Shown here: positions 3,870 to 57,260 of the stretch, in pieces
How positions within the stretch are numbered: the first letter of the stretch is position 1
Layout of the letters: each line of letters opens with the position of its first letter
DNA from: an uncultured Bdellovibrio sp.
GTDB lineage: Bacteria > Bdellovibrionota > Bdellovibrionia > Bdellovibrionales > Bdellovibrionaceae
Direction of reading: 5' to 3'
Length of the DNA: 64,000 bases
Assembly (NCBI GenBank): GCA_964590635.1
Contig: CAZPYX010000001.1
Span: 550 to 64,549, forward strand
The notes under the pieces: model-generated
What the model was told of the DNA's origin: nothing
Database searches by the model: none
Seen by the model: only the letters and a program-made list of their open reading frames with translations
Made by a program: the position numbers and the translations under genes

Positions 3870-4015
3870 AAATAGACCAAGCAGATCAACACTGTAATGC
3901 AGCAGGTTGGGGTTGTGACTTTTTTGTCGCTTTTCTTTTAAGCCCTCTGTGGATTTTGAAAGAGTTGACAGGTTTTTCGGCAGGTCCATAATGGCGGAAT
4001 TGCGAGGGCTAAAGC

Positions 4016-5713
4016 TTGGAAGACAAAGTTGCAACTAAAAGACCACTCTCTATTCCCTATTCTGGAACCGCATTGCTGGAGATTTCTTTATTAAATAAGG
4101 GAAGCGCCTTTTCAGAAGAAGAGCGTGTTAATCTCAAACTTTTGGGATTGCTGCCGCAAACAATCGAAACGATCGAAGAACAAGAAAAGCGTGTTTACAG
4201 CCAGTATCGAGAATTTAAATCCGATATCAATAAGCATATTTACTTGCGCAGTATGCAAGACACCAATGAGACTCTGTTCTATCATCTTCTTGATAATCAC
4301 TTAAGCGAGATGCTTCCAATCATTTATACTCCAGTGGTTGGCGAGGCTTGCGAACATTTTTCTGATATTTACCGAGCGGCCCGTGGCCTTTTTATTTCGT
4401 ATCCAAACCGAGATCATATTGATCAGATGTTGGCGAACGTGACCAAACAAAATGTGAAAGTCATTGTCGTCACAGACGGTGAGCGCATCTTGGGCTTGGG
4501 GGATCAGGGTATCGGTGGTATGGGCATTCCTATTGGGAAGTTAGCGCTTTACACTGCTTGCGGAGGAGTCAGTCCAGCTTACACCTTGCCGATTGTTCTT
4601 GATGTGGGAACGAACAATCAACAGTTACTGAATGATCCTTTGTACATGGGATGGCGTCATCCCCGTATTACTGGCGAAGAATATGACAAGTTCGTCGATG
4701 CTTTCATCCAAGCGCTGAAACGTCGCTGGCCTAATGTTCTTCTTCAGTTCGAAGATTTCGCACAAAAAAATGCCGGACCATTGTTGAATCGCTACCGAGA
4801 CGAAATTTGTTGTTTTAACGATGATATTCAAGGAACGGCTTCTGTCGTGTTGGGTTCATTGATTGCAGCGAGTCGTGCGGCGGGAAGTCGTTTGCGTGAT
4901 CAGACGGTCGCATTCTTGGGCGCAGGTTCAGCGGGCTGTGGCATTGCCGAACAAATCGTCGCAGAGATGCAAGCTGAAGGACTGAGTGAATCAGAAGCTC
5001 GTGCACGAGTGTTCATGGTGGATCGATTTGGTTTGTTGACTGATAAGATGCCAAATCTTCTCGACTTCCAAGAAAAGCTTGTTCAGAAAAGCGAGACTCT
5101 TGAAAATTGGAAGATTGAAAAGGACGCGATCTCGTTACTTGAGGTCGTAAAAAATGCGAAGCCCTCTGTTTTGATTGGTGTTTCCGCACAGCCAGGTCTT
5201 TTCACGGAAGAGATCATCCGCACCATGCACCAAAATTGTAAGCGTCCCATTGTGATGCCGCTATCAAATCCGACTTCGCGAGTGGAAGCCCGCCCGGAAG
5301 ACATCATTCAATGGACCGAAGGGGCTGCGTTGGTTGCAACGGGAAGTCCATTCACTCCGGTTCAGTACAATGGTAAAAGTTATCCCGTTGCCCAGTGTAA
5401 TAATTCATATATTTTCCCTGGAGTAGGACTTGGCGTCTTAGCTTCTGGAGCACGTCGTGTGACGGAATCCATGATGATGGCAGCAAGTCGTGCCTTAGCT
5501 GAATGTTCACCGCTTGCAAAAAAAGGTGACGGAGCTTTATTGCCGGCGATTGATGATATTCAAAAAGTTTCACGCATCATTGCCTTTAAAGTCGGGAAAG
5601 CGGCGCAAGCAGCTGACGTTGCTAAAGTCACATCGGATCAAGAGCTAGAAAAGTCTATTGAAGATAATTTCTGGAAGCCTTGGTATCGCAATTATAAGCA
5701 TGTTCCAAAATAG
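4016..5713 (+). CDS. maeA: NAD-dependent malic enzyme (MaeA/SfcA type)
   Basis: [54 protein letters not shown] motifs; 565 aa; TTG start. Confidence 0.95.
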
Positions 5714-7176: not shown

Positions 7177-7204
7177 AATAAAAAAGGCGCCTATGTAGCG
7201 CCTT
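7177..7204 (-). terminator. Intrinsic terminator after lspA
   Basis: AAGGCGC-tacatag-GCGCCTT followed by a T-run on the minus strand. Confidence 0.65.
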
Positions 7205-7697
7205 CCTCTTTTTCTTTTTTCTTGTTCTCGATGAACATGAGTAGCAACAAAAGTCCCACTCCGCCAACAATGGCCATGTCGGCAATATTGAAGGCTGGCC
7301 AGCTCCACTTGTTGTAAAGATGGAAGTCTGCGAAGTCGATCACGTATCTGAAGCGAATACGATCAATGTAATTACCGATGGCGCCACCAAAGATACTTGA
7401 AAGAGCGATGATTTGCTTTGTGTCTGAATCCTTCACTCCGCGCAAAATGCCCAAGATGATAATCAAAGCGATCGGAGGCATGGAAAGGAAGAACAATTCG
7501 CGGAAAGACGGGTGGCTTTCTGCAAGGAAACCAAAGGCTGCGCCGAAGTTTCTAACGTAGGTCAGGTTGAAGAAATTCGGGATAACAATGACAGATTCGC
7601 CCAAGTGAAAGTGTGTGTGGACGTACATTTTTACAACTTGATCCAAAGCGATTAAAAAGCCAGAGATCGCTAGTAGCCAAATATATTTTTTCTTCAT
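7191..7697 (-). CDS. lspA: Lipoprotein signal peptidase II
   Basis: LDQVVK, NFGAAFG, GAIGNYIDR, VIDF, WPAFNIAD motifs. Confidence 0.97.
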   Translation of the reverse strand: MKKKYIWLLAISGFLIALDQVVKMYVHTHFHLGESVIVIPNFFNLTYVRNFGAAFGFLAESHPSFRELFFLSMPPIALIIILGILRGVKDSDTKQIIALSSIFGGAIGNYIDRIRFRYVIDFADFHLYNKWSWPAFNIADMAIVGGVGLLLLLMFIENKKKEKEEGAT

Positions 7698-7757: not shown

Positions 7758-8369
7758 CTATTTCAGCATCCCTTTGGACTTCACATAGCCGATTTTAATC
7801 AGCATACGGACGACCTCTAGGTCAGAACTCAAGTTTAGCTCTTCTTTGACTTCCTGAATCATCAGGCGAGTACCGCAGTCCAAGGCATCCATAAGGCTGC
7901 CGGAATGGGTGGTGGCTGTCACAGTTTTCTCTGTGTAAGAGACCTGTGTTTGAGTTGGCGCCGACTGAACCACAGATTGAGTGATGGTTTGGTGGTGCTG
8001 AGGTTGGTGGTGAACTGTATTCGAGATAGGTGTCACTTGAGGTGCTGGAGCCGTTGCCGTCATAGTAGCCATTGTCGCAGTGGCAGACATAGTCGCTGGT
8101 CCTGCTGAAGTGGCTCCAACATGAATCGCAGGACGATCTAGTTCACCCATCATTCCTGCGAGGCTCTTAAGCTCATTTTTAAAGTTTCTGATGCTAGGGC
8201 GTTCCAAAACACTATCGCCATCGCGACCAGCCTTAAGGTAAAGGCTCACCAAGATATCCGGAGTCGTAGCGATCTCCTTGATAGAAGAATCCTGCGTCAT
8301 TAGCCATTGATAGGCCTTAAGCAGAATATCTTTGGTGTATGCCTGTGGAGGCAACGGGTTCATGGTCAT
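7758..8369 (-). CDS. Hypothetical protein with a low-complexity Thr/Ala/Gln linker
   Basis: 203-aa ORF with normal coding pattern; two apparently globular ends joined by a low-complexity middle. Confidence 0.75.
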   Translation of the reverse strand: MTMNPLPPQAYTKDILLKAYQWLMTQDSSIKEIATTPDILVSLYLKAGRDGDSVLERPSIRNFKNELKSLAGMMGELDRPAIHVGATSAGPATMSATATMATMTATAPAPQVTPISNTVHHQPQHHQTITQSVVQSAPTQTQVSYTEKTVTATTHSGSLMDALDCGTRLMIQEVKEELNLSSDLEVVRMLIKIGYVKSKGMLK

Positions 8370-8590
8370 GTTTGGAATTTTCCCCTCGAGCGAGTTGGTG
8401 AAACTACAGATTCAATTCCGGTGAGTCAACGTGAACACTACGCAAAATAAAAACTATTGCTGCTCAAAAAATACGCACTACTACATGTGGAGGATAAAAC
8501 CGGGTTACAAAACTAGAGGCGCTGCGGAAAATTGATTTTTCCCAAATTCTTTTTCTTGCAAAAAAAATCTTCGTTTATTTCCGCCAGAAA

Positions 8591-8654
8591 GGAAAAGAGT
8601 GCCTGCTTCTTTCTCCGAGAAAGTAGCAGGCACCTTTTCCGAAAAGGTACCAGG
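8591..8654. repeat. Degenerate REP-like palindrome (GGTAC/GGTGC family)
   Basis: GGAAAAGAGTGCCTGCTTCTTTCTC paired with GAGAAAGTAGCAGGCACCTTTTCC, followed by a partial GAAAAGGTACCAGG; shares the GT(A/G)CCTGCT core with the copies at 32966 and 33619. Confidence 0.7.
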
Positions 8655-8677
8655 TGTTCCGAAAATTGTTTTGGGGC

Positions 8678-8711
8678 AAAAAAAAGCCCCGGTTTTGCCG
8701 GGGCTTTTTTT
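8678..8711. terminator. Bidirectional intrinsic terminator
   Basis: A-run, GCCCCGG-tttt-GCCGGGGC, T-run at the stop of the sigma54 regulator. Confidence 0.85.
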
Positions 8712-10236
8712 AGTTAACGTAGTCTTTTGCGACGATTCCGTATTTTTCGATCTTACGAAGAAGCGTCTTCTTCGGGATGTTGGCGTGAAGAGCCGTTTGA
8801 TTGATACGACCTCGGAATGTTTTAAGAGCTTTGATAATAAACTCTTTTTCGAAGGCTTCTTTTTGCGCATTGAAATCTAAACTTTCGTTGCCAGAATAAG
8901 GAACAATTTCTTCGCCATCAAGATCGGCAGAGTCATCGCCCATATCAGCATCTTCATCGTCACCCAAAGTGGCGTGAGCTTTGACCGCCGCTGACATTCC
9001 TGCAGAGGCAATATTCGCAGCCGTCTCCATAACAGGTGGTACATCGATCAAATTAGTTCCAGTTGCAAATAGCAAAGACTCAGGCAACGAAGCGATCGTG
9101 ATGATGTTTGTCATCTCAAGAACGAAAGCGTGTTCGATCACGTTTTCGAGCTCACGAATATTTCCCGGCCAAGCATGCTTTTTCAAAACGGACATCGCAT
9201 CTGGAGCGATTCCATTGATACGTTTGCCATGGGCAACATTGAACTTCTTGATAAAGATGTTCACCATGTGCTCCATGTCGTCTTTGCGTTCAGCCAAGGC
9301 AGGCAAGAATATAGGTACAACGTTCAAACGATAGAACAAGTCTTCACGGAATGTTCCCGCTTTGATCATGTCTTCCAGAGGTCTGTTAGTCGCGGCGATA
9401 ATACGAACATTCGCAGGGAATTCTCTGTTTGAACCTACTGGAGTGAAAAGCTTTTCTTGAAGAACGCGAAGGATTTTAACTTGCATGAGTTGAGGCATGT
9501 CGCCCACTTCATCCAAGAATAAAGTTCCGCCTTCAGCATATTGAAACTTCCCAATTTTGCGCTGATCAGCGCCTGTGAAAGAACCCTTTTCGTGACCAAA
9601 TAATTCAGATTCGAAAAGATTTTCTGGGATTGCAGAGCAGTTGATCGCAACGAATTTTTCGTCTTTGCGAGCCGAGTTAAAGTGAATTGCTTTAGCTACA
9701 AGTTCTTTACCTGTACCTGAAGAACCACGAATCAGCACTGGCGTGTCAACTTTAGCAAGACGGTGAATGATGTTAAATACCTTCTGCATTTGTGAGGTGT
9801 TGCCGATGATCTTGCGACCGGCTTCAACCATCACAGGAGCAGAGGCTGCCACATTTGAGATCAAGTTGTGAGCGTTTACAGCTTTGTCGATCAAAGCCAA
9901 CATGTCTTCGCTAGCTACGGGTTTTGCGAGATAGTTGTAGGCACCATCTTTAACAGCTTGAATAGCATCATTCAAAGTCGCATGTGCTGTCATTACGATG
10001 ACGATAATACCAGGATTGAATTCTTTGATTTGGCGAAGGGCTTCAAGACCGTTCATGCGAGGCATGTCGACGTCTAAGATCACAACGTCGTAGTTTTTGT
10101 CACCGGCTTTGATTTTCTCCATCGCATTGACACCGTCGAAAGCTTCGTCGATATCAAAACGTTGAGTGATAGCTAAGGCTGATTTTACCGAAAGTCTTAG
10201 ACCTTGATCGTCATCGACAACTAGGACCTTAAGCAT
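8710..10236 (-). CDS. NtrC-family sigma54-dependent response regulator
   Basis: REC (VVDDD, LDVDMP), Walker A GSSGTGKE, ESELFGHEKGSFTGA, FLDEV, WPGNIREL, acidic linker, Fis-type HTH. Confidence 0.95.
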   Translation of the reverse strand: MLKVLVVDDDQGLRLSVKSALAITQRFDIDEAFDGVNAMEKIKAGDKNYDVVILDVDMPRMNGLEALRQIKEFNPGIIVIVMTAHATLNDAIQAVKDGAYNYLAKPVASEDMLALIDKAVNAHNLISNVAASAPVMVEAGRKIIGNTSQMQKVFNIIHRLAKVDTPVLIRGSSGTGKELVAKAIHFNSARKDEKFVAINCSAIPENLFESELFGHEKGSFTGADQRKIGKFQYAEGGTLFLDEVGDMPQLMQVKILRVLQEKLFTPVGSNREFPANVRIIAATNRPLEDMIKAGTFREDLFYRLNVVPIFLPALAERKDDMEHMVNIFIKKFNVAHGKRINGIAPDAMSVLKKHAWPGNIRELENVIEHAFVLEMTNIITIASLPESLLFATGTNLIDVPPVMETAANIASAGMSAAVKAHATLGDDEDADMGDDSADLDGEEIVPYSGNESLDFNAQKEAFEKEFIIKALKTFRGRINQTALHANIPKKTLLRKIEKYGIVAKDYVN

Positions 10237-12109
10237 GAATACCCCCGTGCTTGATTGGCAGTTCTACCGTAAAAGTGGATCCATTTCCATAATTAGATTC
10301 TACGGAAAGATTTCCTTTGTGTAGCTCTGTAAAATATTTAGCCAAGTAGAGCCCTAGCCCCGAACCCTTGATAGGCGAACTCTTGGCATTTTTACTTCTA
10401 AAAAACTTCATAAAGATATTATTGAGCTCTTCGGCAGGGATGCCGGGCCCCTGGTCGGCGACTTGAATGACGACTTTCTCATCTTTTTCCTCGCTGCTGA
10501 CCATGATTTTCGTGTCTTCTGGAGAGTACTTAATGGCGTTCTCTACCAGATTCGAAAGAACTTGTTTCATGAGGTCAGAATCCATAGGAATTGGAAACAT
10601 TGGTTCGAGCTCTGAAACGATTTGGATGCGTTTTACTTTAGCTAAAAACTCATGCTTACGGATGACTTCTTTAAGGACGTTGTTAATGTCCTTACTTTGC
10701 AGATGAAGTTGCACACCTTCGCTCTCAATTCGACCGTAATTGAGGATGGCGCTGATGAATTTCAATAAATCATCGGCAGAGTGCTTGATCGTATCGACAG
10801 CCTCACGCTGCTGAGAGCTGACAGGGTTTGCGTCTGTCAGAATAACTTCAGTCATTCCCTGAATGCGCGCAATCGGCGTCTTCAGATCATGGGACATCAT
10901 AGAGATAAAGTTCGTCTTAAGCTCTTCAACTTGGCTCAAGAGTTTATTCTTCTGATAATATTCCCAACTACGGCGATTTTCGACAATCAAGCGGTAGGGG
11001 ATGAAGAAGTAGTAGCAGAGGAGGCCTGCCAAAAGTGGATGAGCCATTGGAATCCAGAGGCCGAAAACCCAATAGAGAGCAAAACAAACGACAGTAAATC
11101 CACCCAGGGAACCAACCAAGATCAAAAGACCTTTTGTCGGTTTCATAGTAAGGACAGTCTGAATTGTTAAGAAAGCGATAACGAAAAGCAAAATCCAATT
11201 TATATAACTAGGTAATTTTACCGGACCTGAATTGCGAATGAGGGTATCAATGATATTCGCCTGCATCTCAATGCGAGTCATAGCGGTTGGTGAACGATCT
11301 AGAGGAGTTCTAATGTACTCTTGTTCATTCAGGTTGAGATCCGTACCAATAAGAACGATTTTGTCTTTGAATCGATCTGCATTTATTTTTCCACTTAGGA
11401 CATCTTCAAATGAAGATGAGGGAAATGTATTTTGCTTATGGTAGTCGATATAAGCTTGGTCTGTATCGTAAAAGAGGAAGTGTCCACGTACATTTTCTGG
11501 AGAAATAATCTCAGGATTGAAAAGGCTAGCTAGTTGAACTTGCAACATAGGTGAGCCTTGGAATGTAAGAATCATTCTTCTTGTAACGCTATCTTTTGCA
11601 AAGTTTAGAACATCGGCTGTTTTTGGAGCCGGAACGGATTTTACTTGCTCGAGAGGGTCCGGGAGATAGAGGCTTTTCTCCTCTCCTTTAAGTACAGTCG
11701 CCTTTGATGCAACAAAAACATTTTTATTCGCTACGATGACAGCTTCCCAGCTGTTTTTACTGTCCACATTGCCGGCTGACTCATCAACTGCGAAGTCATA
11801 AACGATGGCTTTGGCGTTGGAGGCTAGGATATTTTTAAGCAGTTGCTTTTGTGCTGCCGCATCCGGAAGACCCTTAAATTTTTGAACTGTATTAGGAGTA
11901 ATATAAATGAGTTCAATTTTATCAGAACTTGGAGTAAGGAGCTTGGTTTCTACGCGAACGTCAAAAAGCCAAGATTCAATGAACTCCAAATGAAGTTGAG
12001 CGATAAGAAATGCCATCCCCACCGCGAACAGAGCTCGCAGTGCAAAAGTACGATATTGGCTTCGCTTGGAAGCTCTTAATGTCTCTTCAGGGGAGGGAGG
12101 AAGAGTCAT
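10229..12109 (-). CDS. CHASE2-domain sensor histidine kinase
   Basis: N-terminal TM; periplasmic domain with TRRMIL and FKDKIVLIG..TP..MTRIEMQANIIDTL (CHASE2-like); three TM; SHDLKTP; NLVENAIKYS; DQGPGI; GSGLGL. Confidence 0.88.
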   Translation of the reverse strand: MTLPPSPEETLRASKRSQYRTFALRALFAVGMAFLIAQLHLEFIESWLFDVRVETKLLTPSSDKIELIYITPNTVQKFKGLPDAAAQKQLLKNILASNAKAIVYDFAVDESAGNVDSKNSWEAVIVANKNVFVASKATVLKGEEKSLYLPDPLEQVKSVPAPKTADVLNFAKDSVTRRMILTFQGSPMLQVQLASLFNPEIISPENVRGHFLFYDTDQAYIDYHKQNTFPSSSFEDVLSGKINADRFKDKIVLIGTDLNLNEQEYIRTPLDRSPTAMTRIEMQANIIDTLIRNSGPVKLPSYINWILLFVIAFLTIQTVLTMKPTKGLLILVGSLGGFTVVCFALYWVFGLWIPMAHPLLAGLLCYYFFIPYRLIVENRRSWEYYQKNKLLSQVEELKTNFISMMSHDLKTPIARIQGMTEVILTDANPVSSQQREAVDTIKHSADDLLKFISAILNYGRIESEGVQLHLQSKDINNVLKEVIRKHEFLAKVKRIQIVSELEPMFPIPMDSDLMKQVLSNLVENAIKYSPEDTKIMVSSEEKDEKVVIQVADQGPGIPAEELNNIFMKFFRSKNAKSSPIKGSGLGLYLAKYFTELHKGNLSVESNYGNGSTFTVELPIKHGGIHA

Positions 12110-12136: not shown

Positions 12137-12250
12137 CTATTTAACAGGAATACACTCATTGCCACCGCCTAAGCCAGGAGATGATCCAAAGCTAGGAGTA
12201 GTCTTAACGGGCTTTACCTTTTTAATATGTTTAGTAGTTTGAGTTGTCAT
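12137..12250 (-). CDS. Putative RiPP precursor peptide, 37 aa: MTTQTTKHIKKVKPVKTTPSFGSSPGLGGGNECIPVK
   Basis: Below the ORF-track cut-off; translated by hand. GAGGT RBS 5 nt before the ATG; ATG lies 11 nt after the radical SAM stop; TAG is 27 nt before the kinase ATG. Confidence 0.8.
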   Translation of the reverse strand: MTTQTTKHIKKVKPVKTTPSFGSSPGLGGGNECIPVK

Positions 12251-12261
12251 CGTGTACCTCA

Positions 12262-13542
12262 TTAGCAGGCTTCCCTGCATTTTTTGTAGAATAATAAAGT
12301 TGTGCCAAGCAAGTCTTGCATACGCGAGCAGAATTGTTTGTTCTTTGTATTTTTAGAGCCAGATCCTTGTTTGTGGATAAACATGCATCCTCCGCCGCAC
12401 AAGTAGCGTGCCCAGCATGTCTGGCAATTATTTTGTTCGATAAGTGAATCAGTGTACTTTTTTAAGGCCGCATTGTCCAACACGCTACCTTGTCCAACCT
12501 GTTCATTTTTTTGTCCAACGTCCCATGGGCACGTGAATAGACCATTTTTTGCATCAACAACTAAGAACGACTTTCCAGCGCCACAGAAATTCTCTGTTCT
12601 GCGTTGATCGTCTAGAGAAGAAAAAATATTATCGAAGAAGCCAATTTGTCTTAGACCGGCTTCGCCTAAATTTTCATAAGCATACTCGGCAATTTGATGC
12701 ATTTGTTGCGCAAAGATCTTGCTGCTTTTTTCGTCAGCGGCTTCAACGCCATAAGTGAATTCATATTTATCGGCCGGGAAATTGCGATAGAAGTTGTATG
12801 CTTCGATGAGGTTCATATTTTCATCATGAAAAACGCCATGCAAAGAAATCGAACCCAGTTGCTCTTTGTTTGCAAATAACATTTTTAGTCCCTCAGTGAC
12901 GATGGCAGAACTGCCCTGGCCATTCTTCAAGGGACGTACTTTGTCGTTAATATATTCCGGTCCATCAACACTTACAGTGATGTGGCATTTGATATCTTTG
13001 AGCAACTGAAGTGTTGTTTCATTGATCAAAGTTCCATTTGTGACGATCGCAAAATATGCCTTAAGGTCTTTTTCTGAGGTAAACGCCTTAACATATTGTG
13101 CAATGGCTCGAATTCCCTCTGGGTAGAGAAGGGGCTCTCCGCCAAGGAAAGTAATTTTAAAACTTTGCCCTGCAGAAAGCTGCTCTAGGAAAAATTTTAA
13201 TTGAGGCAAAGTCTTTTCAACAGAAATCTTCGTTTGTGGAGACCCATAGGTTCCGTCTCCACCGGCCGCGCAGTAAGTGCATTTCAGATTGCAAATTTGG
13301 GTGACATTGATCGTAAGGCTGCGAATACCGAATGCCAACTTTCCAGAGGAAACTTCCAAGTTGTTCTCATTGTTCCATGTAGCCAAAGATTCCTGAAGTT
13401 CTGAGTTCTTAATTTCGGAACCCAGTTCTTGCCAAAGCTCATCAGAGATCTCCGCGACTTCCAAATTTCGGGCGTGGAAAGCTATCGGAGCTTGTTGGCC
13501 CCATTTGAATGCTATGATGTCGTTTTGTCTCCGAGTTTCCAC
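12262..13542 (-). CDS. Radical SAM/SPASM peptide maturase (CteB/PapB-like)
   Basis: CNLKCTYC, FLGGEPLL, VTNGTL and a seven-Cys SPASM (CGAG..CPW..CQTC..CGGGC..C); about 70 aa of N-terminal RRE-like region. Start uncertain: the track gives 13674, but a sigma54 promoter inside that extension points to GTG 13542. Confidence 0.88.
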   Translation of the reverse strand: METRRQNDIIAFKWGQQAPIAFHARNLEVAEISDELWQELGSEIKNSELQESLATWNNENNLEVSSGKLAFGIRSLTINVTQICNLKCTYCAAGGDGTYGSPQTKISVEKTLPQLKFFLEQLSAGQSFKITFLGGEPLLYPEGIRAIAQYVKAFTSEKDLKAYFAIVTNGTLINETTLQLLKDIKCHITVSVDGPEYINDKVRPLKNGQGSSAIVTEGLKMLFANKEQLGSISLHGVFHDENMNLIEAYNFYRNFPADKYEFTYGVEAADEKSSKIFAQQMHQIAEYAYENLGEAGLRQIGFFDNIFSSLDDQRRTENFCGAGKSFLVVDAKNGLFTCPWDVGQKNEQVGQGSVLDNAALKKYTDSLIEQNNCQTCWARYLCGGGCMFIHKQGSGSKNTKNKQFCSRMQDLLGTTLLFYKKCREAC

Positions 13543-13553
13543 ACCCAAAGTGC

Positions 13554-13570
13554 TAGCAATAGATGTACCA
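13554..13570 (-). promoter_or_regulatory. Sigma54 (-24/-12) promoter for the radical SAM operon
   Basis: Minus strand TGGTAC-ATCTA-TTGCTA; GG-N10-GC spacing with one mismatch to TGGCAC-N5-TTGCW. Confidence 0.7.
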
Positions 13571-13703
13571 CTTTGAGAAATACTTGGCTGGCCGAATAAG
13601 ATGAGTAAAATCAATAATTTAGAATATATTTGGAGGTGGTATTTTGAGCCATATTTTGATGGAAGTGGGGTCAAAATGAAACTATTGCAGGTATGACCAT
13701 CAG

Positions 13704-13738: not shown

Positions 13739-15418
13739 ATGCTTAATCACCATGTGACGACAGCCCACAACTATAAGGAATTTCCGCAATCAGTTGTCGT
13801 AAAAAATACTGTGGACGAGAAAGTTGGAGGAAGAGATGGTCGAATTCGACGATTTGTTCTTAGCATGGACGGTGAATCACTTGATTCCGATTTAGAACGT
13901 TTTCAGAAGCAATTAGGAATTGAGACCAGACCCTTACAAGAATATCAGAACTACTTTCTGTTATCTGGATCGAAGCAAATCTATTTGAGATTGTATGATC
14001 CTAAATCAATTTTGACTTTGCTGCCTGGTCAGATCGAGAAGAAGGGATCAGATCTAGCAGGGAAGATTCTATTTGTTGGAAGTCACGACCAGCATTCCTT
14101 TTATTTGCACAAGTCAATTTCTGGAAGATTTGTTTTAAATGACTCTCAATCAATGGAGTATATGATTTCAGATGCATCCTATCTTGTTAATGCTTTGGAA
14201 AATTTGCGAAGTTTAAATTATATCAAGATGCCGCCGCAATCAGTGAACGTGCTTTGGATCACGGTTTTTGTTGCAATTAATGTCTTTCTTCTATTTATTT
14301 TAAGTCCGTTTTCTTTCATTGTAGCCTCATTTGTTTATCCAATTTTATTTTTCGCTTTGAATTGTTCGATATTTGAATTTGTACAATTTAATTTAGATAT
14401 AAGTAGAGTTTTGTTCTGCGGTCTTTTAATTCAATATATAGGCGTTCCAATTTTACTAATGCGCTACTTGAGACGAGTTGACTCTGAAAAACTTCAGGCA
14501 GAGAAGGAAAGAGCTGTTGATAAGGTCAAATCACGTTTTATTGTTAAGGTCGCAAAGGCTGATCTGAGTTTGCAAATGGCAGCAAGAGTATCGCATGATA
14601 TTCGCAGCCCATTGATGGCTTTGCAGGTCGCAAATTCATTCATTAAGGGCAAGATTTCAGAAGATTTAGAATCTCTCATTCATGAATCTACTCTGAGACT
14701 TAAATTTATTGCCGAAGATATTCTCGACGGCTATCGAGAAGGAAAAGTGGGAGTACGTCCAACTGAGCGAACGGCAATAAAAGAAGTTCTTGAAGAGCTA
14801 TTGAAGTCTTACCGAACCTTGAATCCCGATGTAAAATTTGAATTAGAAGTTGCAGATAATATTGTGACGTTCATTCCCTCATATAGTTTACAAAGATGTC
14901 TTTCAAATTTATTCAATAATTCGATCGAAGCTTTTGAAAACTCATGTGAAACGGTACTTATTTCTGCCAGCCATATCGATGCGAAGAAGGGCAGCTGTTT
15001 CATTATTAATTTGCCTGAAGCTCTTTCTCGAGTTCCCTTGGCAATCACGTCCAACGTTTTAGTTGTAGAGTCTGGGCAAGAGATTTACACCGCGTTGAGA
15101 AATACCGGAAATGTATCTCTGCATATGCGGCAGGAGAGAACTGTTGAGGCAGCACATAATGCCTTGCGCGAGTTTGGTGGGAAATGGACTGTGTTCATTG
15201 ATCTCTCTTTGTCAGATGAAGAATCTGGCTTTGACTTAATAGAAGTATTGGGTGAGAGCTTTTCAGGAAAGGTAATTCTTTGTTCAGTTTTTGCAGACAA
15301 CATGGAAGTGCAAGAAATCGCAAATCGTTACGATGCACTTCTTTTGAATAAAGAACTGTTGCCTCGTTTAGAGTTGATTGTGAGTAACCAAAATTCTATC
15401 CGAGGCAATTCAACTTAG
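13739..15418 (+). CDS. Degenerate hybrid histidine kinase (partial CHASE2-like region, TMs, HisKA, truncated HATPase, atypical REC)
   Basis: DGRIRRFVL, three TM, VSHDIRSP, NLFNNSIEA then almost directly KKGSCFIINLP with no DxGxG; C-terminal VLVVES..FIDLSL..LLNK. AT-rich. Confidence 0.7.
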   Translation: MLNHHVTTAHNYKEFPQSVVVKNTVDEKVGGRDGRIRRFVLSMDGESLDSDLERFQKQLGIETRPLQEYQNYFLLSGSKQIYLRLYDPKSILTLLPGQIEKKGSDLAGKILFVGSHDQHSFYLHKSISGRFVLNDSQSMEYMISDASYLVNALENLRSLNYIKMPPQSVNVLWITVFVAINVFLLFILSPFSFIVASFVYPILFFALNCSIFEFVQFNLDISRVLFCGLLIQYIGVPILLMRYLRRVDSEKLQAEKERAVDKVKSRFIVKVAKADLSLQMAARVSHDIRSPLMALQVANSFIKGKISEDLESLIHESTLRLKFIAEDILDGYREGKVGVRPTERTAIKEVLEELLKSYRTLNPDVKFELEVADNIVTFIPSYSLQRCLSNLFNNSIEAFENSCETVLISASHIDAKKGSCFIINLPEALSRVPLAITSNVLVVESGQEIYTALRNTGNVSLHMRQERTVEAAHNALREFGGKWTVFIDLSLSDEESGFDLIEVLGESFSGKVILCSVFADNMEVQEIANRYDALLLNKELLPRLELIVSNQNSIRGNST

Positions 15419-17367
15419 TGAACTTTAAACTCACCGGTTTCGTCAGTAAACAAGCGAAGATCAAAAGAGCGGTCGGTGATGACGCGTTGGATGTACATGA
15501 GGGACTTATACAGCTCTTCTTGGTCGAAATTGCCGAAGCGATAAGAGATTGTATCTACGCCTTTTGCAGAGAAAGTCATTTCGTAAGCAATCAGAGATTG
15601 AACTTGGTTGGCGGGGATTAGTGATAACAGGAAGCCACCACCATATTGCTGCCAAAGAGGGAAGTCTTTAAGTTCCTTGAATGACTTGTAACGAGCTTCT
15701 GAGGTTTCCGCAGGATTGAAGATCACTGCCAAAGACCTTGCGACATATGAGATGTCCAAATCATAACGATCTAAACCAAATGATCTGTTGTCATCGCCGT
15801 AAGGACCTTGCTCGCGGGGTGGCATTTTTGGGGTTCCATGGGTTTTGATGAAGTTATAAAGACGTACTTTCGCCAATGGATAGTCCAATGTGGGAATCGC
15901 ACGCAAAGCATTTGGATGGAAGAAGATCTCGTTACTAAAGTAGCCATTGACGTGACTGCCATTAGAGAAATCCCATTTTTTCCAATCAATGCGTGCATAT
16001 TCTTCGGCTGGGATCACGGACTTCACGTGTTCTTGGATGTCTTTGTAGTCACCCTTTGAAACGTTCTTCATCTTCATTTCACGGCCCAGTGTTAATGCGA
16101 CAAAGTCGCGAATGATCCAACTGTCGTCAGAAGAGAAAAGCATATTCGTCGTGATGCGATTTTCATCTCCGAACAATCCAAAGATAGCTTTCACTTTCTT
16201 GTTTGTTTGGAATGTATCCATGATGTATTTTTGCTCTTTGTCGTCGCGGTCCACGTGTACCACTTTATTTTGCGCATAAGTAGAGCCCGCTTCAAAACGC
16301 AGAATATTCAAACCAAATTTGAATGAAGAATCCGTGCTTAAAGATTCGTTGGAACCTTTGAAAATGCGATCAATTCGACGTTTGAAAGGCTCGAGTTCAT
16401 GATCTTCTTTTACGATATCTTCAACAACTGAAAGATCTGTTAACAGATCTTCTTTAACAACAGCACTTTTTTCGATCGGGTTGATAAACGCAAGATCTTT
16501 AAAGCGTGTTTTCTTGTGAATAAGATCGTTGTAGGCCTGTGCCGCTTGGGAATTATTGAGGTCAAAGACATAGTCTAGCATGAAGAGATTGTTCGCACTT
16601 CTGCCGGTACCAAGGATGAGTGGATCTAGATCGATCCAACTTTTGATTCTATTATCTAAGTATTTGAAACCAACAATTTTGAAGTTTCCAAAGTTGACGT
16701 TGCCGTCAGCTCCCATGCCTTTTCCGCGAATTGCGATGAGCTTCACACGCAGCTTGTTGTTGGACATTCTAAATGTATGAATTAAGAACTCACCAGAGAC
16801 ATACGCATGAGTAGAGGCTCCAACATTGCCGATGGCCGTTAAAGGTGCATTCGCACCGAGCGAAACCACAAAGGAAAGTTTGCCAGTCATGGCGACGAAA
16901 TCCCCTGGATTCAAATTGCGAATGGCTTGCTCTGCAGAAAGCGGTAAGTTCTTAGGTCCATAGGGTAAAGCAGTTAAAGAGTCGACTTGCTTCTTAAATT
17001 GACGGGCAAAAATGATCTCTGAGTTATTATTGATTCCGAATCCTAGAGGCAAGTCATTGCCATCAATAAAATCCCCTGGATTTGCATCAAGGTCTAATGA
17101 GTATCTGTCGAGACGGGTGTAATAACCATCGACATAGGAAGGCTCAGATTGGATTTTGTATTTAATCGCAGCAGAGAGTCCATCGAAAACGTTGGCATCG
17201 ACGATGTTAACTGTAGCTCCAACTTTTTGTTTTGCGATGATGTTCTTAACTCGCGTGGCAACCTTAGAGGGCTCGAGGAAATCAAGACCTCCAGCATGAG
17301 CTGGTAACGCCGAAAATAACAGACCCGATGATAGGGTCACAGATAGTACATGTTTGGCGATAGTCAT
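15415..17367 (-). CDS. Secreted hypothetical protein, 650 aa
   Basis: Signal peptide ending PAHA, GGAGG RBS, no family recognised. Confidence 0.85.
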   Translation of the reverse strand: MTIAKHVLSVTLSSGLLFSALPAHAGGLDFLEPSKVATRVKNIIAKQKVGATVNIVDANVFDGLSAAIKYKIQSEPSYVDGYYTRLDRYSLDLDANPGDFIDGNDLPLGFGINNNSEIIFARQFKKQVDSLTALPYGPKNLPLSAEQAIRNLNPGDFVAMTGKLSFVVSLGANAPLTAIGNVGASTHAYVSGEFLIHTFRMSNNKLRVKLIAIRGKGMGADGNVNFGNFKIVGFKYLDNRIKSWIDLDPLILGTGRSANNLFMLDYVFDLNNSQAAQAYNDLIHKKTRFKDLAFINPIEKSAVVKEDLLTDLSVVEDIVKEDHELEPFKRRIDRIFKGSNESLSTDSSFKFGLNILRFEAGSTYAQNKVVHVDRDDKEQKYIMDTFQTNKKVKAIFGLFGDENRITTNMLFSSDDSWIIRDFVALTLGREMKMKNVSKGDYKDIQEHVKSVIPAEEYARIDWKKWDFSNGSHVNGYFSNEIFFHPNALRAIPTLDYPLAKVRLYNFIKTHGTPKMPPREQGPYGDDNRSFGLDRYDLDISYVARSLAVIFNPAETSEARYKSFKELKDFPLWQQYGGGFLLSLIPANQVQSLIAYEMTFSAKGVDTISYRFGNFDQEELYKSLMYIQRVITDRSFDLRLFTDETGEFKVH

Positions 17368-47945: not shown

Positions 47946-47962
47946 TTGGCATTTGTGTTGCT
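47946..47962 (+). promoter_or_regulatory. Sigma54 promoter of the fliL operon
   Basis: TTGGCATTTGTGTTGCT, GG-N10-GC. Confidence 0.75.
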
Positions 47963-48031: not shown

Positions 48032-48060
48032 GCAGACTGACCAGCTCATGGAGGATGATA

Positions 48061-48594
48061 GTGGCTGAAGAAAAAGCAGCAGTGGAAGCAGCACCGGCAG
48101 CAAGCGGTGGATCTGGACAAAAGCCTATACTTCTTATTGCATTGGCAGTGATCAATATGCTCATCGTCGCGGGCGTAGGTTTCATGCTTTATAAAGGTAA
48201 GCAAAAAGAAGCAGCCGAACCTAAAATTGAACAAGTTATTAAAGGTGAGGCGGAAGCCCAACATAAAGAAGCCACTGAAGAAAAAGAAGTGGTTGGAAAA
48301 GTTGTACCACTTGAGACGTTTATCGTAAATCTTGCAGGCGCTAAAGGCCGTAAGGTTGCGAAAGTAAACATGGAACTCGAACTCAAAGGGGACCATGCCG
48401 CGGAAGAGATCGATAAGCGCAAAGCGCAGATCCGCGATATCATCATCATTATTCTTTCGAGCAAAACTTATGACGAAGTTTCTTCTCGTGAAGGTAAAGA
48501 CAATCTAAGAAATGAAATTAAAGACACTATCAATTCATTCCTGGTTCAAGGAAAGATTTCGAACGTGTTCTTCACAGAGTTTATCTATAACTAA
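48061..48594 (+). CDS. fliL: Flagellar basal body protein FliL
   Basis: TM helix, PLETFIVNL, QIRDIII..K, VFFTEF; GTG 48061 follows GGAGGA (the track starts at 48055). Confidence 0.92.
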   Translation: MAEEKAAVEAAPAASGGSGQKPILLIALAVINMLIVAGVGFMLYKGKQKEAAEPKIEQVIKGEAEAQHKEATEEKEVVGKVVPLETFIVNLAGAKGRKVAKVNMELELKGDHAAEEIDKRKAQIRDIIIIILSSKTYDEVSSREGKDNLRNEIKDTINSFLVQGKISNVFFTEFIYN

Positions 48595-48603
48595 GGCAGG
48601 ACT

Positions 48604-49614
48604 ATGAATCAGGTTCTTTCGCAAAGTGAAGTGGATGCTCTGTTAGCCGCCGTCTCTGATGGGGATGTGGCGTCTTCAGAAGCTCCTAAATCTGAAGGTC
48701 AGTCATCTAGCGGCGTTGCCAAAGTCGATGATCGTAAGATCGTATCTTATGATCTGACCAGCCAAGATCGTATTATTCGTGGTCGTCTTCCTCAATTGGA
48801 AGTTATCTACGAGAAATTCATGCGTGCTTTCCGCGTCTCTTTGTCATCGGCACTTCGTAAGATTGCGTCGATCACTTTGACCGGCACGGAATTTTTGAAA
48901 TTTGGTGAGTTCATCAATACGTTGCCAATGCCAACATGCATGAGCGTTTTACGCTTTGGTAATTTACGTGGTTCAGCTCTTTTTGTAATTGAAAGTAAAT
49001 TGGCTTATGCCTTAGTCGACAGCTTCTTCGGTGGAGCAGACCGTCCTTATACAAAAATTGACGGTAAAGATTTTACTCCGATTGAATTGCAGATCGTGCA
49101 AAAAGTCGTGGGTCTTGCGATCAACGATATGGAAGCGGCTTGGGCTTCCATCGAAAAAATCGGTTGTTCATTTGTTCGTACGGAAGTGAATCCACAGTTC
49201 GTAGGTATCGTGCCTCCAACAGATGTGGTTATTGCTTCAACATTCGACGTTGAATTGGAAAATGCATCAGGAACGATCTCAATCGTGATTCCTTATGCGA
49301 CGATTGAACCTATCAAACAAAAGCTCTCTACAGGTTTCCAGGTAGAGTCAGATCAAACAGACAAAAGACTTTGGACTTCAATCATTCAAGAACAACTTCT
49401 TGAGACTGACATGGGCATCAAAGTGAATCTCGGCGAAACGGAAATCAAATTGCGTGATTTGATGACCTTGAAAGTTGGGGACGTTATTCCACTCGATCAA
49501 GATGCATCAGGTGAGTTCGACGTTGAAGTTGAAGGCGTTAAAAAGTTCAAAGGTTATTACGGAATACATCACGGTACTGTGGCAGTCCAAGTGACTCGTC
49601 CAGTGACAAAGTAG
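48604..49614 (+). CDS. fliM: Flagellar motor switch protein FliM
   Basis: VLSQSEVDALL CheY-binding motif, YDL, EVNPQF, SpoA C-terminal domain. Confidence 0.96.
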   Translation: MNQVLSQSEVDALLAAVSDGDVASSEAPKSEGQSSSGVAKVDDRKIVSYDLTSQDRIIRGRLPQLEVIYEKFMRAFRVSLSSALRKIASITLTGTEFLKFGEFINTLPMPTCMSVLRFGNLRGSALFVIESKLAYALVDSFFGGADRPYTKIDGKDFTPIELQIVQKVVGLAINDMEAAWASIEKIGCSFVRTEVNPQFVGIVPPTDVVIASTFDVELENASGTISIVIPYATIEPIKQKLSTGFQVESDQTDKRLWTSIIQEQLLETDMGIKVNLGETEIKLRDLMTLKVGDVIPLDQDASGEFDVEVEGVKKFKGYYGIHHGTVAVQVTRPVTK

Positions 49615-52661: not shown

Positions 52662-53723
52662 GTGTCAGAAGATAACGGCGAAAAGACCGAAGAAGCAACG
52701 GATGCGAGACGGGAAGAGTTCCGTAAGCAAGGTAACGTTGCTCATTCAAAGGAGCTTGCGTCAGCGGTATTACTACTCGCTGCGGCCGGTAGCGTTTATT
52801 TTCTGGGTCGTTTTTTCTTTAAAAATTTCTACGAACTTTTCCAATATTCATTCGGTCCGAACATGGTCGAAATGGTCCGTAAAGGCAATTTCACAGAGGC
52901 TTTCATGATGAACGGTAAAACCGCTTTCATCTTGATCATGCCAGTGGTTGGTATTGCCGGTATCCTAGGTGTTGCGTGCTCCGTTGCACAAACGGGTTTC
53001 ATGCAAGTTGAAGACGCATTGACGCCAAAATTTGAAAAAGTAAATCCAATGGAAGGCTTCAAGCGCGTGTTTAGCATGCGTTCGATTGTTGAGGCCGTGA
53101 AGTCTTTGCTGAAGATGGGCGCGATCGGTCTGATCTTATATTATCTTTTGCGCGGTGAAGTTCATCAGATTCCTTACATGATGAGTTTCTCTGTCGAACA
53201 AATCATTTCTTATCTTGGTGCCGTGGTCGCAAAGCTTTTAGGTGGTGTCGGCGCGGTGATGTTTATCCTCGCTGCTGCGGATTACTTCTATCAGCGTTGG
53301 GATCTTGAAAAGAAAATGATGATGACGAAGCAAGAAATTAAAGAAGAACACAAACAGCGCGAGGGTGATCCTATGATCAAATCGCGCATTCGTCGTATTC
53401 AAAGGGAAATGGCCAGCAAGCGTATGATGGCCGAAGTTCCTAAGGCTGACGTGATCATCACCAATCCGACTCATATCGCTGTTTGCTTGAAGTACTCTGA
53501 TAATTTGCCAGCTCCTCAGGTCATTGCCATGGGGGCAGATTCAGTAGCTGAAAATATCAAGCAACTCGCTAGAGAGCACAATATTCCCATCGTGGAAAAT
53601 AAGCCTCTGGCTCGTACTATTTTTAAAACAATGAAGGTTGGCCAAGTAATACCACGTGAGCTTTTTGTCGCTGTGGCAGAAGTTCTTTCGTATGTTTATC
53701 GTTTGCGTAGGAAGAAAAGATAA
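52662..53723 (+). CDS. flhB: Flagellar export protein FlhB
   Basis: EKTEEAT, EGDP, ITNPTH autocleavage motif, AVAEVL. Confidence 0.97.
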   Translation: MSEDNGEKTEEATDARREEFRKQGNVAHSKELASAVLLLAAAGSVYFLGRFFFKNFYELFQYSFGPNMVEMVRKGNFTEAFMMNGKTAFILIMPVVGIAGILGVACSVAQTGFMQVEDALTPKFEKVNPMEGFKRVFSMRSIVEAVKSLLKMGAIGLILYYLLRGEVHQIPYMMSFSVEQIISYLGAVVAKLLGGVGAVMFILAAADYFYQRWDLEKKMMMTKQEIKEEHKQREGDPMIKSRIRRIQREMASKRMMAEVPKADVIITNPTHIAVCLKYSDNLPAPQVIAMGADSVAENIKQLAREHNIPIVENKPLARTIFKTMKVGQVIPRELFVAVAEVLSYVYRLRRKKR

Positions 53724-55822: not shown

Positions 55823-57260
55823 GAAATTCGAAGCACGTACGATGAAAGAAGCGCTTGAGATGGTTAAGACTCAGTTGGGTCCTGACGCTATCATTCTTTC
55901 AGCACGAGACAATAATAAGAGCTTCGGTCTTGTGGGTGAAGGCAGTGTGGAAATCACAGCGGCGGTTTCTGAAGAGACTTTGCAAAGAAAGAAATTTGCA
56001 GAATCAAAACTTCGTGAACAAGATCAACAAAGATTTCAGCAAAGTTCTGCACGTCAGCAGAAAGAGTTGATCACGAAGATGGTTGATAAGCACACGCAAA
56101 AGAACAAAGCGCCGACGCCTATTACACAACGTCGTTATATCGATATCGAAGAAGACGAAAATCAATACGCTCGTCAACAGCAGATTTCTGAGCAACGCGT
56201 GCGCGCTTCTGCGCAAAGAGCTTTGCATGCTTTCCAAGAGCAAGAAGAGACTTTCACGGGAACTCGCAGACAGCCTCAAGCTGCGGCACCAGCTCCTGTG
56301 GCGAAACCAGTTGTCAAAGCAGGGCCGGATCAGGAATCTGAAGCCATTCGTGCATTGAAGAATGAGATTGCCAGTTTGAAGCAAGTCATCACCCAGTTCC
56401 AACAGATGCCACAGAGCTTTGTCGGGTCTCATCCAGGTGCTGACTATGGTATCAACTATGATTTGAGCGCTATCTTCCAAAAGTTGACCACTGCGGGAGT
56501 GGCTCCTGAAATTACCGCTGATATTTTGACTCAAGCTCAAGAAACTTTGCCGGCTTTAAAATTGAAAAACAAAGCTCTCGTAGAAGCTTGGGTGGCTCGC
56601 CATGTTTTGGATGCAACTAAAATTGCGACCAATCCAACTGCTGGGAAAATCCACTGTTTTGTGGGTCCCGCAGGTGCTGGTAAAACTTCAACGATGATCA
56701 AAATGGCCAGTAATATGGTTGTTCGTGAAGGTAAGAAAGTTGCTTTGTTTACGACTGACACCTACAAAGTAGGTGCAGCCGATCAAATGAAGATTTATGC
56801 GCAAATCTTGAATGTGCCGTTCTCTGTGATTCGCACGCAAAATGATTGGCACAACTTGATGAGATACTTGGCTAACGTAGATTGCGTATTGGTGGACTTC
56901 ACAGGCTTGAGCCTTAAAAATAATGAAGAGATCCAAATGATGCGCAACCTTTTGCCACCGCAAGGATTGAATCCAAATATTCACTTGGTTCTTTCTGCGA
57001 ACTCTAAGGACGGGGACGTGACTGAATTGGGTCGTCGCTATTCTATGTTGAATTATAAAGATGTGATCTTCTCTGGTTTGGATGAGTCCGCTCAGCACGG
57101 AACTATCTATAACTTCATGAGACGTTTTGATATTCCTCTGCATTCGTTCGGTATTGGTTCGAGAGTTCCAGAAGACTATGAATTCGCAACCAAAGAACGT
57201 TTATTGGATCTTATTTTCAAAATCACTCAACTGAAACAACAGGATTCTGAAGCTGTATGA
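55812..57260 (+). CDS. flhF: Flagellar GTPase FlhF
   Basis: MQVKKFEARTMKEAL, GPAGAGKTS, TTDTYKVGA. Confidence 0.95.
   Translation: MQVKKFEARTMKEALEMVKTQLGPDAIILSARDNNKSFGLVGEGSVEITAAVSEETLQRKKFAESKLREQDQQRFQQSSARQQKELITKMVDKHTQKNKAPTPITQRRYIDIEEDENQYARQQQISEQRVRASAQRALHAFQEQEETFTGTRRQPQAAAPAPVAKPVVKAGPDQESEAIRALKNEIASLKQVITQFQQMPQSFVGSHPGADYGINYDLSAIFQKLTTAGVAPEITADILTQAQETLPALKLKNKALVEAWVARHVLDATKIATNPTAGKIHCFVGPAGAGKTSTMIKMASNMVVREGKKVALFTTDTYKVGAADQMKIYAQILNVPFSVIRTQNDWHNLMRYLANVDCVLVDFTGLSLKNNEEIQMMRNLLPPQGLNPNIHLVLSANSKDGDVTELGRRYSMLNYKDVIFSGLDESAQHGTIYNFMRRFDIPLHSFGIGSRVPEDYEFATKERLLDLIFKITQLKQQDSEAV

Follow-up and report, generated by a model that had tools for sequence, protein, structure and literature searches.

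A four-gene operon encoding a short cysteine-containing peptide was found on the reverse strand of a 64,000-nt stretch of DNA from an uncultured Bdellovibrio sp. (contig CAZPYX010000001.1; the whole stretch is referred to here as the window). The peptide gene, a 37-codon open reading frame (ORF), followed a gene for a radical S-adenosylmethionine (rSAM)/SPASM enzyme and preceded the genes for a CHASE2 sensor histidine kinase and an NtrC-type sigma-54-dependent response regulator. The ORF is a genuine gene, beyond chance. We consider it likely that its product is a true substrate of the rSAM enzyme, modified at or around the Cys. The further proposal, that the ORF is the precursor gene of an unnamed family of ribosomally made peptides with post-translational modifications (RiPPs) across Bdellovibrionales, we regard as evenly balanced. 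Because the gene order matches that of agrBDCA and comQXPA, and because divergence of the peptide core tracks divergence of CHASE2, this peptide, encoded in one operon with a membrane sensor kinase and a regulator, may be a self-made signal.

The translated ORF was MTTQTTKHIKKVKPVKTTPSFGSSPGLGGGNECIPVK (37 aa). An earlier note on this DNA, made from the sequence alone, had described a Lys-rich N-terminal half, a PSFGSSPGLGGG stretch and a single Cys four residues from the C-terminus, and the translation confirmed all of these. Lys occupied positions 7, 10, 11, 13 and 16, PSFGSSPGLGGG corresponded to residues 19-30, and the sole Cys was C33, with four residues C-terminal to it. The residues F21, S23, S24, N31, E32 and C33 were all present under the numbering of that note. 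A longer reading of the ORF starts at ATG 12280 (47 aa). The start at ATG 12250 was preferred because a GAGGT site lies 5 nt ahead of it, directly 3′ of the maturase stop codon (12262-12264).

Orthologues of the peptide were already on deposit as hypothetical proteins. An exact look-up recovered three of them, from B. bacteriovorus strains HD100 (CAE78161.1, UniProt Q6MI21; 38 aa, uncharacterized), 109J (Bb109J_c3116) and Tiberius (Bdt_3279). Pfam and NCBIfam profile searches matched the peptide to no family, and a protein homologue search with the 47-aa form gave no match (no common 5-residue words). No second copy of the peptide was found in the window, and neither a plasmid DNA search with the locus nor an Rfam search of the whole window yielded a match. 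Literature searches on Bdellovibrio and on the orthologue identifiers found no paper describing the system, only generic counts of biosynthetic gene clusters. Two other readings of the Cys were tried and rejected. A lipoprotein signal had been suggested by the sequence G-L-A-C in some of the homologues and by the proximity of lspA; it was dropped, as a hydrophobic h-region was absent and the Bdellovibrio clade had no lipobox. A CaaX box was dropped as well, since it needs three residues behind the Cys and C33 has four.

For comparison, a scan of one genome per species recovered 80 related loci, essentially all from Bdellovibrionales, with maturase identities ranging from 71% down to 39%. Two contigs carrying the cassette (L034 and P0014) were labelled as “Streptomyces griseus” and “Bacillota bacterium” metagenome-assembled genomes, and these are probably binning or labelling errors. 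A small ORF was located behind the rSAM/SPASM gene and ahead of the next gene in 79 of the 80 loci, bearing out the suggestion of the earlier note that this was a precursor-like peptide beside an rSAM/SPASM maturase. The lone exception (L074) was a locus cut off at the contig end, and another locus (L069) had a truncated copy of the peptide only. Curation resulted in 79 peptides, 75 of which were distinct; counts out of 75 refer to the distinct peptides throughout.

The peptides were 27-73 aa long. The Cys on which the earlier note had built was kept in the core of all of them (75/75), was the only Cys in 73/75, and was followed by Pro at +2 in 74/75. Gly was found at -3 from the Cys in 48/75 and at -1 in 31/75. 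Position +3 was never Gly and was otherwise variable, while position +4, which was Gly or the C-terminal residue, was Gly in 33/75, Arg in 12/75 and Lys in 9/75. Exactly four residues followed the Cys in 33/75 peptides, with tails ranging from 3 to 12 residues. A leader of the type [HYF]-I-K-K-[VI]-x-P was present in approximately 69 of the 75, and the linker between leader and core was rich in Gly, Ser, Pro and Thr and differed among the homologues in both length and composition. The family layout is a conserved basic leader, a variable linker and a short C-terminal core, G-x-x-C-x-P-x-x.

Selection on the peptide gene acts at the protein level. Nine close pairs of sequences had 71 synonymous and 43 non-synonymous codon differences, and across the homologues the invariant Cys was encoded by both of its codons and the invariant Pro by all four. 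A Shine-Dalgarno-like sequence stood ahead of 72 of the 79 peptide copies. Duplication of the precursor gene is typical of RiPP loci. One locus (L057) possessed two tandem precursor genes, in different frames, in the gap between maturase and kinase (about 5270-5710). Their peptides were ...VGLGCVPVGIR and MKLIKKVSPDKTKLLTAKGGASTTTIKAVGLECAPLGAS.

The start of the maturase gene was set at GTG 13542 because alignments with the homologues begin there. The mechanical ORF reaches 13674 (470 aa), and the extension overlies the promoter region. The enzyme matched the Pfam Radical_SAM family with 67.8 bits. Its CxxxCxxC motif (C128/C132/C135 of the 470-aa ORF, C83/C87/C90 in the 425-aa form) was invariant in 51 homologues. 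The C-terminal part had seven invariant Cys residues and no more (C319, C337, C372, C375, C381, C385 and C404), which aligned with the SPASM Cys residues of CteB. Motifs for all three clusters were accounted for. Among the NCBIfam models PapB scored highest (174 bits, cut-off 340), with an alignment spanning positions 2-327 of the 330 in the profile, and it was followed by the nif11 maturase (171 bits, cut-off 519), QhpD (135 bits, cut-off 453) and the SCIFF maturase (126 bits, cut-off 425). These top-scoring models describe maturases that make thioethers or cross-links. The anSME model scored 84.5 bits, with a cut-off of 349.

The nearest solved structure by sequence was CteB (E 8e-29), and anSME matched with E 6e-8. 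An AlphaFold2 (AF2) model of the maturase (predicted local distance difference test, pLDDT, 89.5) matched the fold of CteB with a template modelling (TM) score of 0.78 (about 447 columns, those of the N-terminal domain among them), and that of anSME with 0.64 over about 379 columns. Residues 1-57 of the model formed a confident N-terminal domain of four strands and helices, a candidate RiPP recognition element (RRE). In CteB, the leader of the precursor CteA forms a beta-strand that pairs with the RRE (PMC6231123). A seven-Cys SPASM pattern goes with an open site on auxiliary cluster I (Aux I) in AlbA and CteB, whereas the clusters of anSME are fully ligated (PMC6231123). Judging by sequence and predicted fold, the maturase appears to be nearer to thioether synthases than to any other enzyme type. 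By analogy with CteA, the leader K-H-I-K-K-V-K-P is presumed to be the contact for the RRE-like domain.

We suggest the following course for the modification. The RRE-like domain would probably bind the leader, and the enzyme would act on the single invariant Cys, whose thiolate would occupy the open position of auxiliary cluster I. The 5′-deoxyadenosyl radical would then take a hydrogen from a residue within C-x-P-x-x, in which Pro(+2) would enforce a turn, and one thioether would form, with a partner expected on the C-terminal side of the Cys (perhaps at +3 or +4) and not on the N-terminal side. The partner is placed within C-x-P-x-x because everything conserved sits at or after the Cys. One thioether is the likeliest reaction, although that the modification is a thioether falls slightly short of an even chance in our judgement. 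A Cys with four residues behind it corresponds to the ring size of the thiolactones of autoinducing peptides, which is a lead only. Of the unusual single-Cys chemistry foreseen in the earlier note, the single Cys was upheld, and the chemistry may indeed be new, as the peptide and the enzyme fall within none of the known family models for precursors or maturases.

The genes for the maturase, the peptide, the CHASE2 kinase and the sigma-54 regulator make up a single operon, with a conserved sigma-54 promoter at one end and a terminator at the other (Table 1). The maturase and peptide genes were 11 nt apart, the peptide stop codon was 27 nt from the kinase gene, and the kinase and regulator genes overlapped by 8 nt. 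This order was kept in essentially all of the 80 loci, down to the maturase identity of 39%, and was the same in B. bacteriovorus 109J. The regulator always adjoined the other genes and was 63-93% identical across loci.

A TGG-N8/9-TTGC[A/T] motif was found at most 200 nt upstream of the maturase gene in 62 of 79 loci, compared with 0.022 expected per 210 nt. The number of such motifs in the window alone was at chance level (7 found, 6.25 expected), and the weight of the motif therefore lies in its positional conservation across loci only. Its -12 element was 13-16 nt ahead of the start codon of the maturase gene (GTG in the window). Further upstream, the box AATAGTTTCATTTTGACCCCA recurred at a fixed distance in 16 of 61 loci, in the Bdellovibrio clade (background 0.003 per 170 nt). 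Elements resembling TAAGTAATTGAAATTACT were found with a strict pattern in 13 of 61 loci (background 0.02), which is weak evidence for the palindrome TAAATTATTGATTTTACT. A scan for consensus sigma-70 promoters and terminators gave nothing above chance; it missed the terminator behind the regulator gene, which was read directly from the sequence. No tandem repeats were found in a search of positions 8300-8900.

Transcript data were available for B. bacteriovorus. RNA-seq contigs from two studies began at positions 4007 and 4009 of its locus (L010), one of them with a sequencing adapter directly ahead. The orthologous sigma-54 motif is at 3974-3989 and the ATG at 4006, so that the contigs began 18-20 nt past the motif. 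The contigs ran unbroken through all four genes. This supports a single polycistronic, near-leaderless mRNA transcribed from the sigma-54 promoter. Because the conserved sigma-54 promoter is accompanied by a co-encoded sigma-54 activator, the operon promoter would probably be activated by the operon's own regulator.

Table 1. Features of the operon and its flanks, in coordinates of the window
Feature	Position	Strand	Description
Intrinsic terminator GCCCCGG-caaaa-CCGGGGC + T8	8678..8704	-	6 nt after regulator stop; 7-bp GC stem, 5-nt loop
NtrC-type sigma-54-dependent response regulator	8710..10236	-	REC, AAA+ Sigma54_activat, HTH_8
Sensor histidine kinase	10229..12109	-	First transmembrane helix (TM1), periplasmic CHASE2 (residues 33-313), three transmembrane helices, HisKA, HATPase; Pfam CHASE2/HisKA/HATPase_c
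Precursor peptide gene (putative)	12137..12250	-	37 aa + stop; leader, variable linker, C-terminal core
Core G30-N-E-C33-I-P35-V-K37	12140..12163	-	Cys codon 12152-12154, Pro(+2) codon 12146-12148
Leader motif K7-H-I-K-K-V-K-P14	12209..12232	-	Motif type common to ~69/75 distinct homologues
Shine-Dalgarno GAGGT of peptide gene	12256..12260	-	5 nt ahead of ATG 12250, read from sequence
Radical-SAM/SPASM peptide maturase	12262..13542	-	426 aa from GTG 13542; N-terminal RRE-like domain, CxxxCxxC, seven-Cys SPASM
Sigma-54 type promoter TGGTAC-N5-TTGCT (-24/-12), TGGTACatctaTTGCT	13555..13570	-	Ahead of maturase gene
AT-rich imperfect palindrome TAAATTATTGATTTTACT	13604..13621	-	~35-50 nt ahead of -24 element; candidate integration host factor (IHF)/activator site
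Conserved upstream box AATAGTTTCATTTTGACCCCA	13666..13686	-	~110 nt ahead of -24 element; candidate enhancer/regulator site

Under the signalling model, the modified peptide would probably be the cognate signal of the CHASE2 kinase, and the regulator would then switch on the operon's own sigma-54 promoter, resulting in a positive loop. CHASE2 was the most divergent part of the kinase, with a median identity to the window copy of 37%, compared with 69% for the kinase core. Co-variation was assessed by Mantel tests. Pairwise divergence of the peptide core correlated with that of CHASE2 at r 0.58-0.62 and with that of the maturase at r 0.56-0.58, while for the kinase core, the transmembrane region, the regulator and an unrelated neighbour with a metallo-beta-lactamase (MBL) fold r was 0.37-0.41. 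The partial correlation between peptide and CHASE2 was 0.26 given the maturase (p = 0.0005) and 0.52 given the MBL-fold neighbour (p = 0.0005). The reverse partials for the kinase core, the transmembrane region and the MBL-fold neighbour were near zero. This co-variation between the peptide core and CHASE2 is suggestive, and only suggestive, of a signal-receptor pairing. We propose tentatively, and with some doubt, that the peptide is the signal of the kinase. The wider proposal, that Bdellovibrionales carry an autoinducing circuit similar to agr or comQXPA but made of unrelated parts (an rSAM-modified Cys-x-Pro core, a CHASE2 ligand and sigma-54 feedback), is possible, though on the unlikely side.

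Several points weigh against the reading of the peptide as a thioether-bearing signal made and perceived by the products of its own operon. The maturase scored below the cut-off of every curated NCBIfam family. In the 75 distinct peptides no side chain besides Pro(+2) was conserved as a possible acceptor, and a fixed acceptor register, such as C-X3-D or N-x-x-C, was absent. An unconserved acceptor side chain is nevertheless compatible with a thioether, because radical thioether synthases can tolerate varied acceptors; NxxcB, for example, accepts several acceptor residues (PMC9389541). The Mantel correlations may partly mirror fast-evolving sequences tracking each other, and sensor domains are commonly the most divergent part of a kinase (PMC5192318). 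The transcript evidence consists of assembled contigs from a related species, and the organism of the window, which comes from a rock metagenome, has DNA runs only. Finally, the peptide has no export signal, and no exporter or protease was found in the operon or in the 64-kb window. Export is the weakest point of the signal model, as a peptide without a signal sequence and without a linked exporter would have to be transported to the periplasmic CHASE2 domain. ComX, too, is not known to have a dedicated exporter.

In the main rival explanation on function, the peptide is truly modified by the rSAM enzyme and is not a ligand of the kinase. The CHASE2 kinase would sense another cue, for example from prey or the envelope, and the two-component system would merely switch on production of the peptide. 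The peptide would then be an effector, either as an antimicrobial or a factor in predation, as a metal or redox ligand, or as a regulator within the cell. The lack of a linked exporter or protease fits such a role. Linked regulators control many RiPP clusters whose product is not itself the signal, such as the streptide-type RaS-RiPPs under shp/rgg (PMC9389541), and the high conservation of the regulator is as expected if it had a wider housekeeping regulon. However, maturase, precursor, kinase and regulator follow each other in one transcript in the order of agrBDCA and comQXPA, and this order is kept across the whole of Bdellovibrionales. In addition, co-variation of the peptide core with the sensor domain goes beyond that with the maturase, the kinase core, the regulator and the unrelated neighbour, and there is no immunity gene, which is usually needed for a toxic product. 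We consider this explanation unlikely, if still a possible one.

The chemistry could also differ from the thioether proposed above, the main alternative being an oxidation. The Cys of C-x-P-x-(R/K) could be oxidised to formylglycine, as by an anSME-like enzyme, and the resulting aldehyde peptide might cyclise or react further, with no thioether formed. The motif recognised in sulfatases is C/S-x-P/A-x-R, and the Cys and Pro(+2) of the peptides reproduce its core. The single Cys, the lack of a conserved acceptor residue and the presence of anSME among the significant sequence and fold matches are all consistent with this chemistry, as is the basic residue (Arg or Lys) that 21/75 peptides have at +4, the one in the window among them. 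Yet while C-x-P was present in 74/75 peptides, Arg(+4) was found in 12/75 only, and Gly, at 33/75, was more frequent there than Lys (9/75). The match of the maturase to anSME was also far weaker than its matches to thioether synthases, by NCBIfam score and cut-off, by E value and by TM score. Moreover, the maturase bears an N-terminal domain of the leader-binding type, which anSME lacks, and has seven conserved SPASM Cys residues only, compared with the fully ligated clusters of anSME. Formylglycine formation is therefore improbable.

It is very improbable that the small ORF is not a substrate at all, being instead a translated spacer or coupling element or an unrelated small basic protein, while the rSAM enzyme acts on another protein. 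The resemblance of the maturase to QhpD, a modifier of a protein subunit, would agree with this, but a leader, an invariant C-terminal Cys-x-Pro and a free linker form the conservation pattern of a RiPP precursor. The ORF is always located behind the maturase gene, the two tandem copies in L057 are what RiPP precursors often show, and the N-terminal domain of the maturase resembles that of CteB.

The earlier note had suggested that the GG, at residues 28-30, could be the end of the leader, cut by a C39-peptidase ABC transporter to release (G)NECIPVK, and that the Cys was probably linked to an upstream acceptor (Asn31, Glu32, Ser23/24 or Phe21), unless the chemistry was not a thioether. By the note's own criterion, conservation among the homologues, the Cys held up and the GG did not. 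GGG is indeed present three residues ahead of the Cys in the 37-aa peptide, and Gly is frequent at -3 and -1 in the family. However, only 22/75 peptides had a GG at any position ahead of the Cys, and 17/75 had one no more than 8 residues from it. The 53/75 peptides without GG before the Cys included close relatives, such as ...SSDAGCIPVQ, ...QIEDNCIPVK and ...PTASECIPVK. Equivalents of N31 and E32 (D, E or N at -1 or -2) were present in 34/75 only, the region of F21, S23 and S24 is an unalignable linker of variable length, and the leader is unlike double-glycine leaders. ORFs of at least 480 aa in the 64-kb window were scanned, and none matched ABC-transporter or peptidase families; all but 15415-17367 were otherwise assigned. 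A C39-peptidase ABC transporter was absent from the 12-kb locus around the operon in B. bacteriovorus 109J as well. Since the GG and the acceptors are unconserved and the window has no such transporter, double-glycine release and an upstream acceptor are unsupported, and the model is scarcely credible. The GG of the 37-aa peptide is part of the variable linker and no processing site.

Compared with known systems, the operon seems by analogy to act like a thioether RiPP of the CteB/PapB type and to be laid out like agr/comQXPA, without homology to the latter. It falls outside every named family because the curated scores failed and a conserved acceptor register is lacking. In our view it represents a new precursor family together with a maturase subfamily of its own, both firmly coupled to a two-component system of the CHASE2/sigma-54 type throughout a whole bacterial order.

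Among the closest known systems are the two-gene SCIFF cassettes of CteA and CteB (a ranthipeptide system, formerly the “sactipeptide” thermocellin). In both systems a short precursor is encoded beside an rSAM/SPASM maturase, which has an RRE in CteB and a candidate RRE here, and neither system includes a protease or exporter of its own. Both have the seven-Cys SPASM pattern, and CteB is the nearest solved structure in sequence and in fold. SCIFF peptides are linked to quorum sensing in passages of PMC13635244 and PMC9389541 that cite Chen et al. 2020. Unlike the Bdellovibrio-type peptide with its one Cys, SCIFF precursors have six Cys residues in approximately 45 residues, and their hosts are Clostridia rather than an aerobic Gram-negative predator. 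The score of the maturase against the SCIFF model was far from the cut-off, and the Bdellovibrionales cassette is joined to a two-component system under a sigma-54 promoter. PapB, of the freyrasin system PapA/PapB, was the top NCBIfam model for the maturase, with nearly the full profile aligned. PapB makes its cross-link around a Cys, inside a short window of the type C-X3-acceptor (PMC9413430). It needs Asp or Glu at +4, in six repeats, whereas Asp or Glu was conserved nowhere in the Bdellovibrionales peptides, their +4 position being Gly or the C-terminal residue, and the PapB score was likewise below its cut-off.

The streptococcal NxxcA/NxxcB system forms one thioether from one Cys, with the thiol activated on an auxiliary cluster and with tolerance for the acceptor (PMC9389541), as is predicted here. 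Its acceptor is Asn, conserved at -3 from the Cys, whereas only Gly(-3) is conserved before the Cys in the Bdellovibrionales peptides, and the NxxC clusters are under shp/rgg control and include a transporter. The likeness to anSME consists of an rSAM/SPASM enzyme and a single Cys with Pro(+2) and with a basic residue, Arg or Lys, at +4 in part of the peptides. The substrate here, however, is a peptide of 27-73 aa with a leader and not a sulfatase, and the maturase carries an RRE-like domain at its N-terminus and seven cluster Cys residues instead of eight.

In agrBDCA and comQXPA the genes for a modifying enzyme, a precursor, a membrane histidine kinase and a response regulator follow each other in one unit. 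The Bdellovibrionales operon has the same order, and its predicted site of modification is likewise a few residues from the C-terminus. None of its four proteins is homologous to its counterpart: an rSAM/SPASM enzyme takes the place of AgrB or ComQ, a CHASE2 kinase that of AgrC or ComP, and a sigma-54 activator that of a LytTR- or NarL-type regulator. The Bdellovibrionales hosts are also Gram-negative, and signalling by their peptides is putative. As in nisin/subtilin-type autoinduction, a RiPP would be encoded with the two-component system controlling its promoter. Nisin and subtilin differ in their lanthipeptide chemistry and in having genes for a dedicated transporter, a protease and immunity, and no such genes were seen in the Bdellovibrionales cassette.

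For RiPP chemistry, the peptides offer a small substrate that is conserved widely and has one Cys, in which Pro(+2) is the sole conserved partner candidate, unlike the characterised multi-Cys sactipeptides and ranthipeptides. For signalling, they offer a candidate ligand of CHASE2, a domain for which no signals were known as of 2016 (PMC5192318). This candidate is encoded beside its presumed receptor across a whole order, and its core co-varies with CHASE2. If the proposal is true, Gram-negative predators would have a modified-peptide signal, and CHASE2 a first natural ligand. The cassette is present in the tractable B. bacteriovorus strains HD100, 109J and Tiberius and is transcribed in B. 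bacteriovorus, and the proposal is thus directly testable in predatory bacteria.

A 203-aa protein with no family match (7758-8369, reverse strand) was encoded behind the operon terminator in most loci. It had a conserved N-terminal region and a low-complexity middle rich in Ala, Thr, Met and Pro. The next gene, in the window and in 109J, encoded signal peptidase II (LspA; 7191-7697, reverse strand). In 109J, a gene for a siderophore-interacting-protein-like product was inserted between the regulator gene and that of the 203-aa protein. On the other side, a divergent gene (13739-15418, forward strand) encoded a 559-aa protein with a weak HisKA match only and no recognised ATPase domain, which was found beside the cassette in few loci. 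It was followed by a gene for a 650-aa protein (15415-17367, reverse strand) with a secretion-signal-like N-terminus and no Pfam or NCBIfam match, and homologues of this protein were located near the cassette in some Bdellovibrio genomes only. A second good sigma-54-type motif, TGGCATTTGTGTTGCT (47947-47962, forward strand), was found about 90 nt upstream of fliL-fliM (48055-48594 and 48604-49614). These two genes were followed by a flagellar export cluster that included FlhA (53723-55822) and a GTPase of the signal recognition particle SRP54 type (55812-57260), which is probably FlhF.

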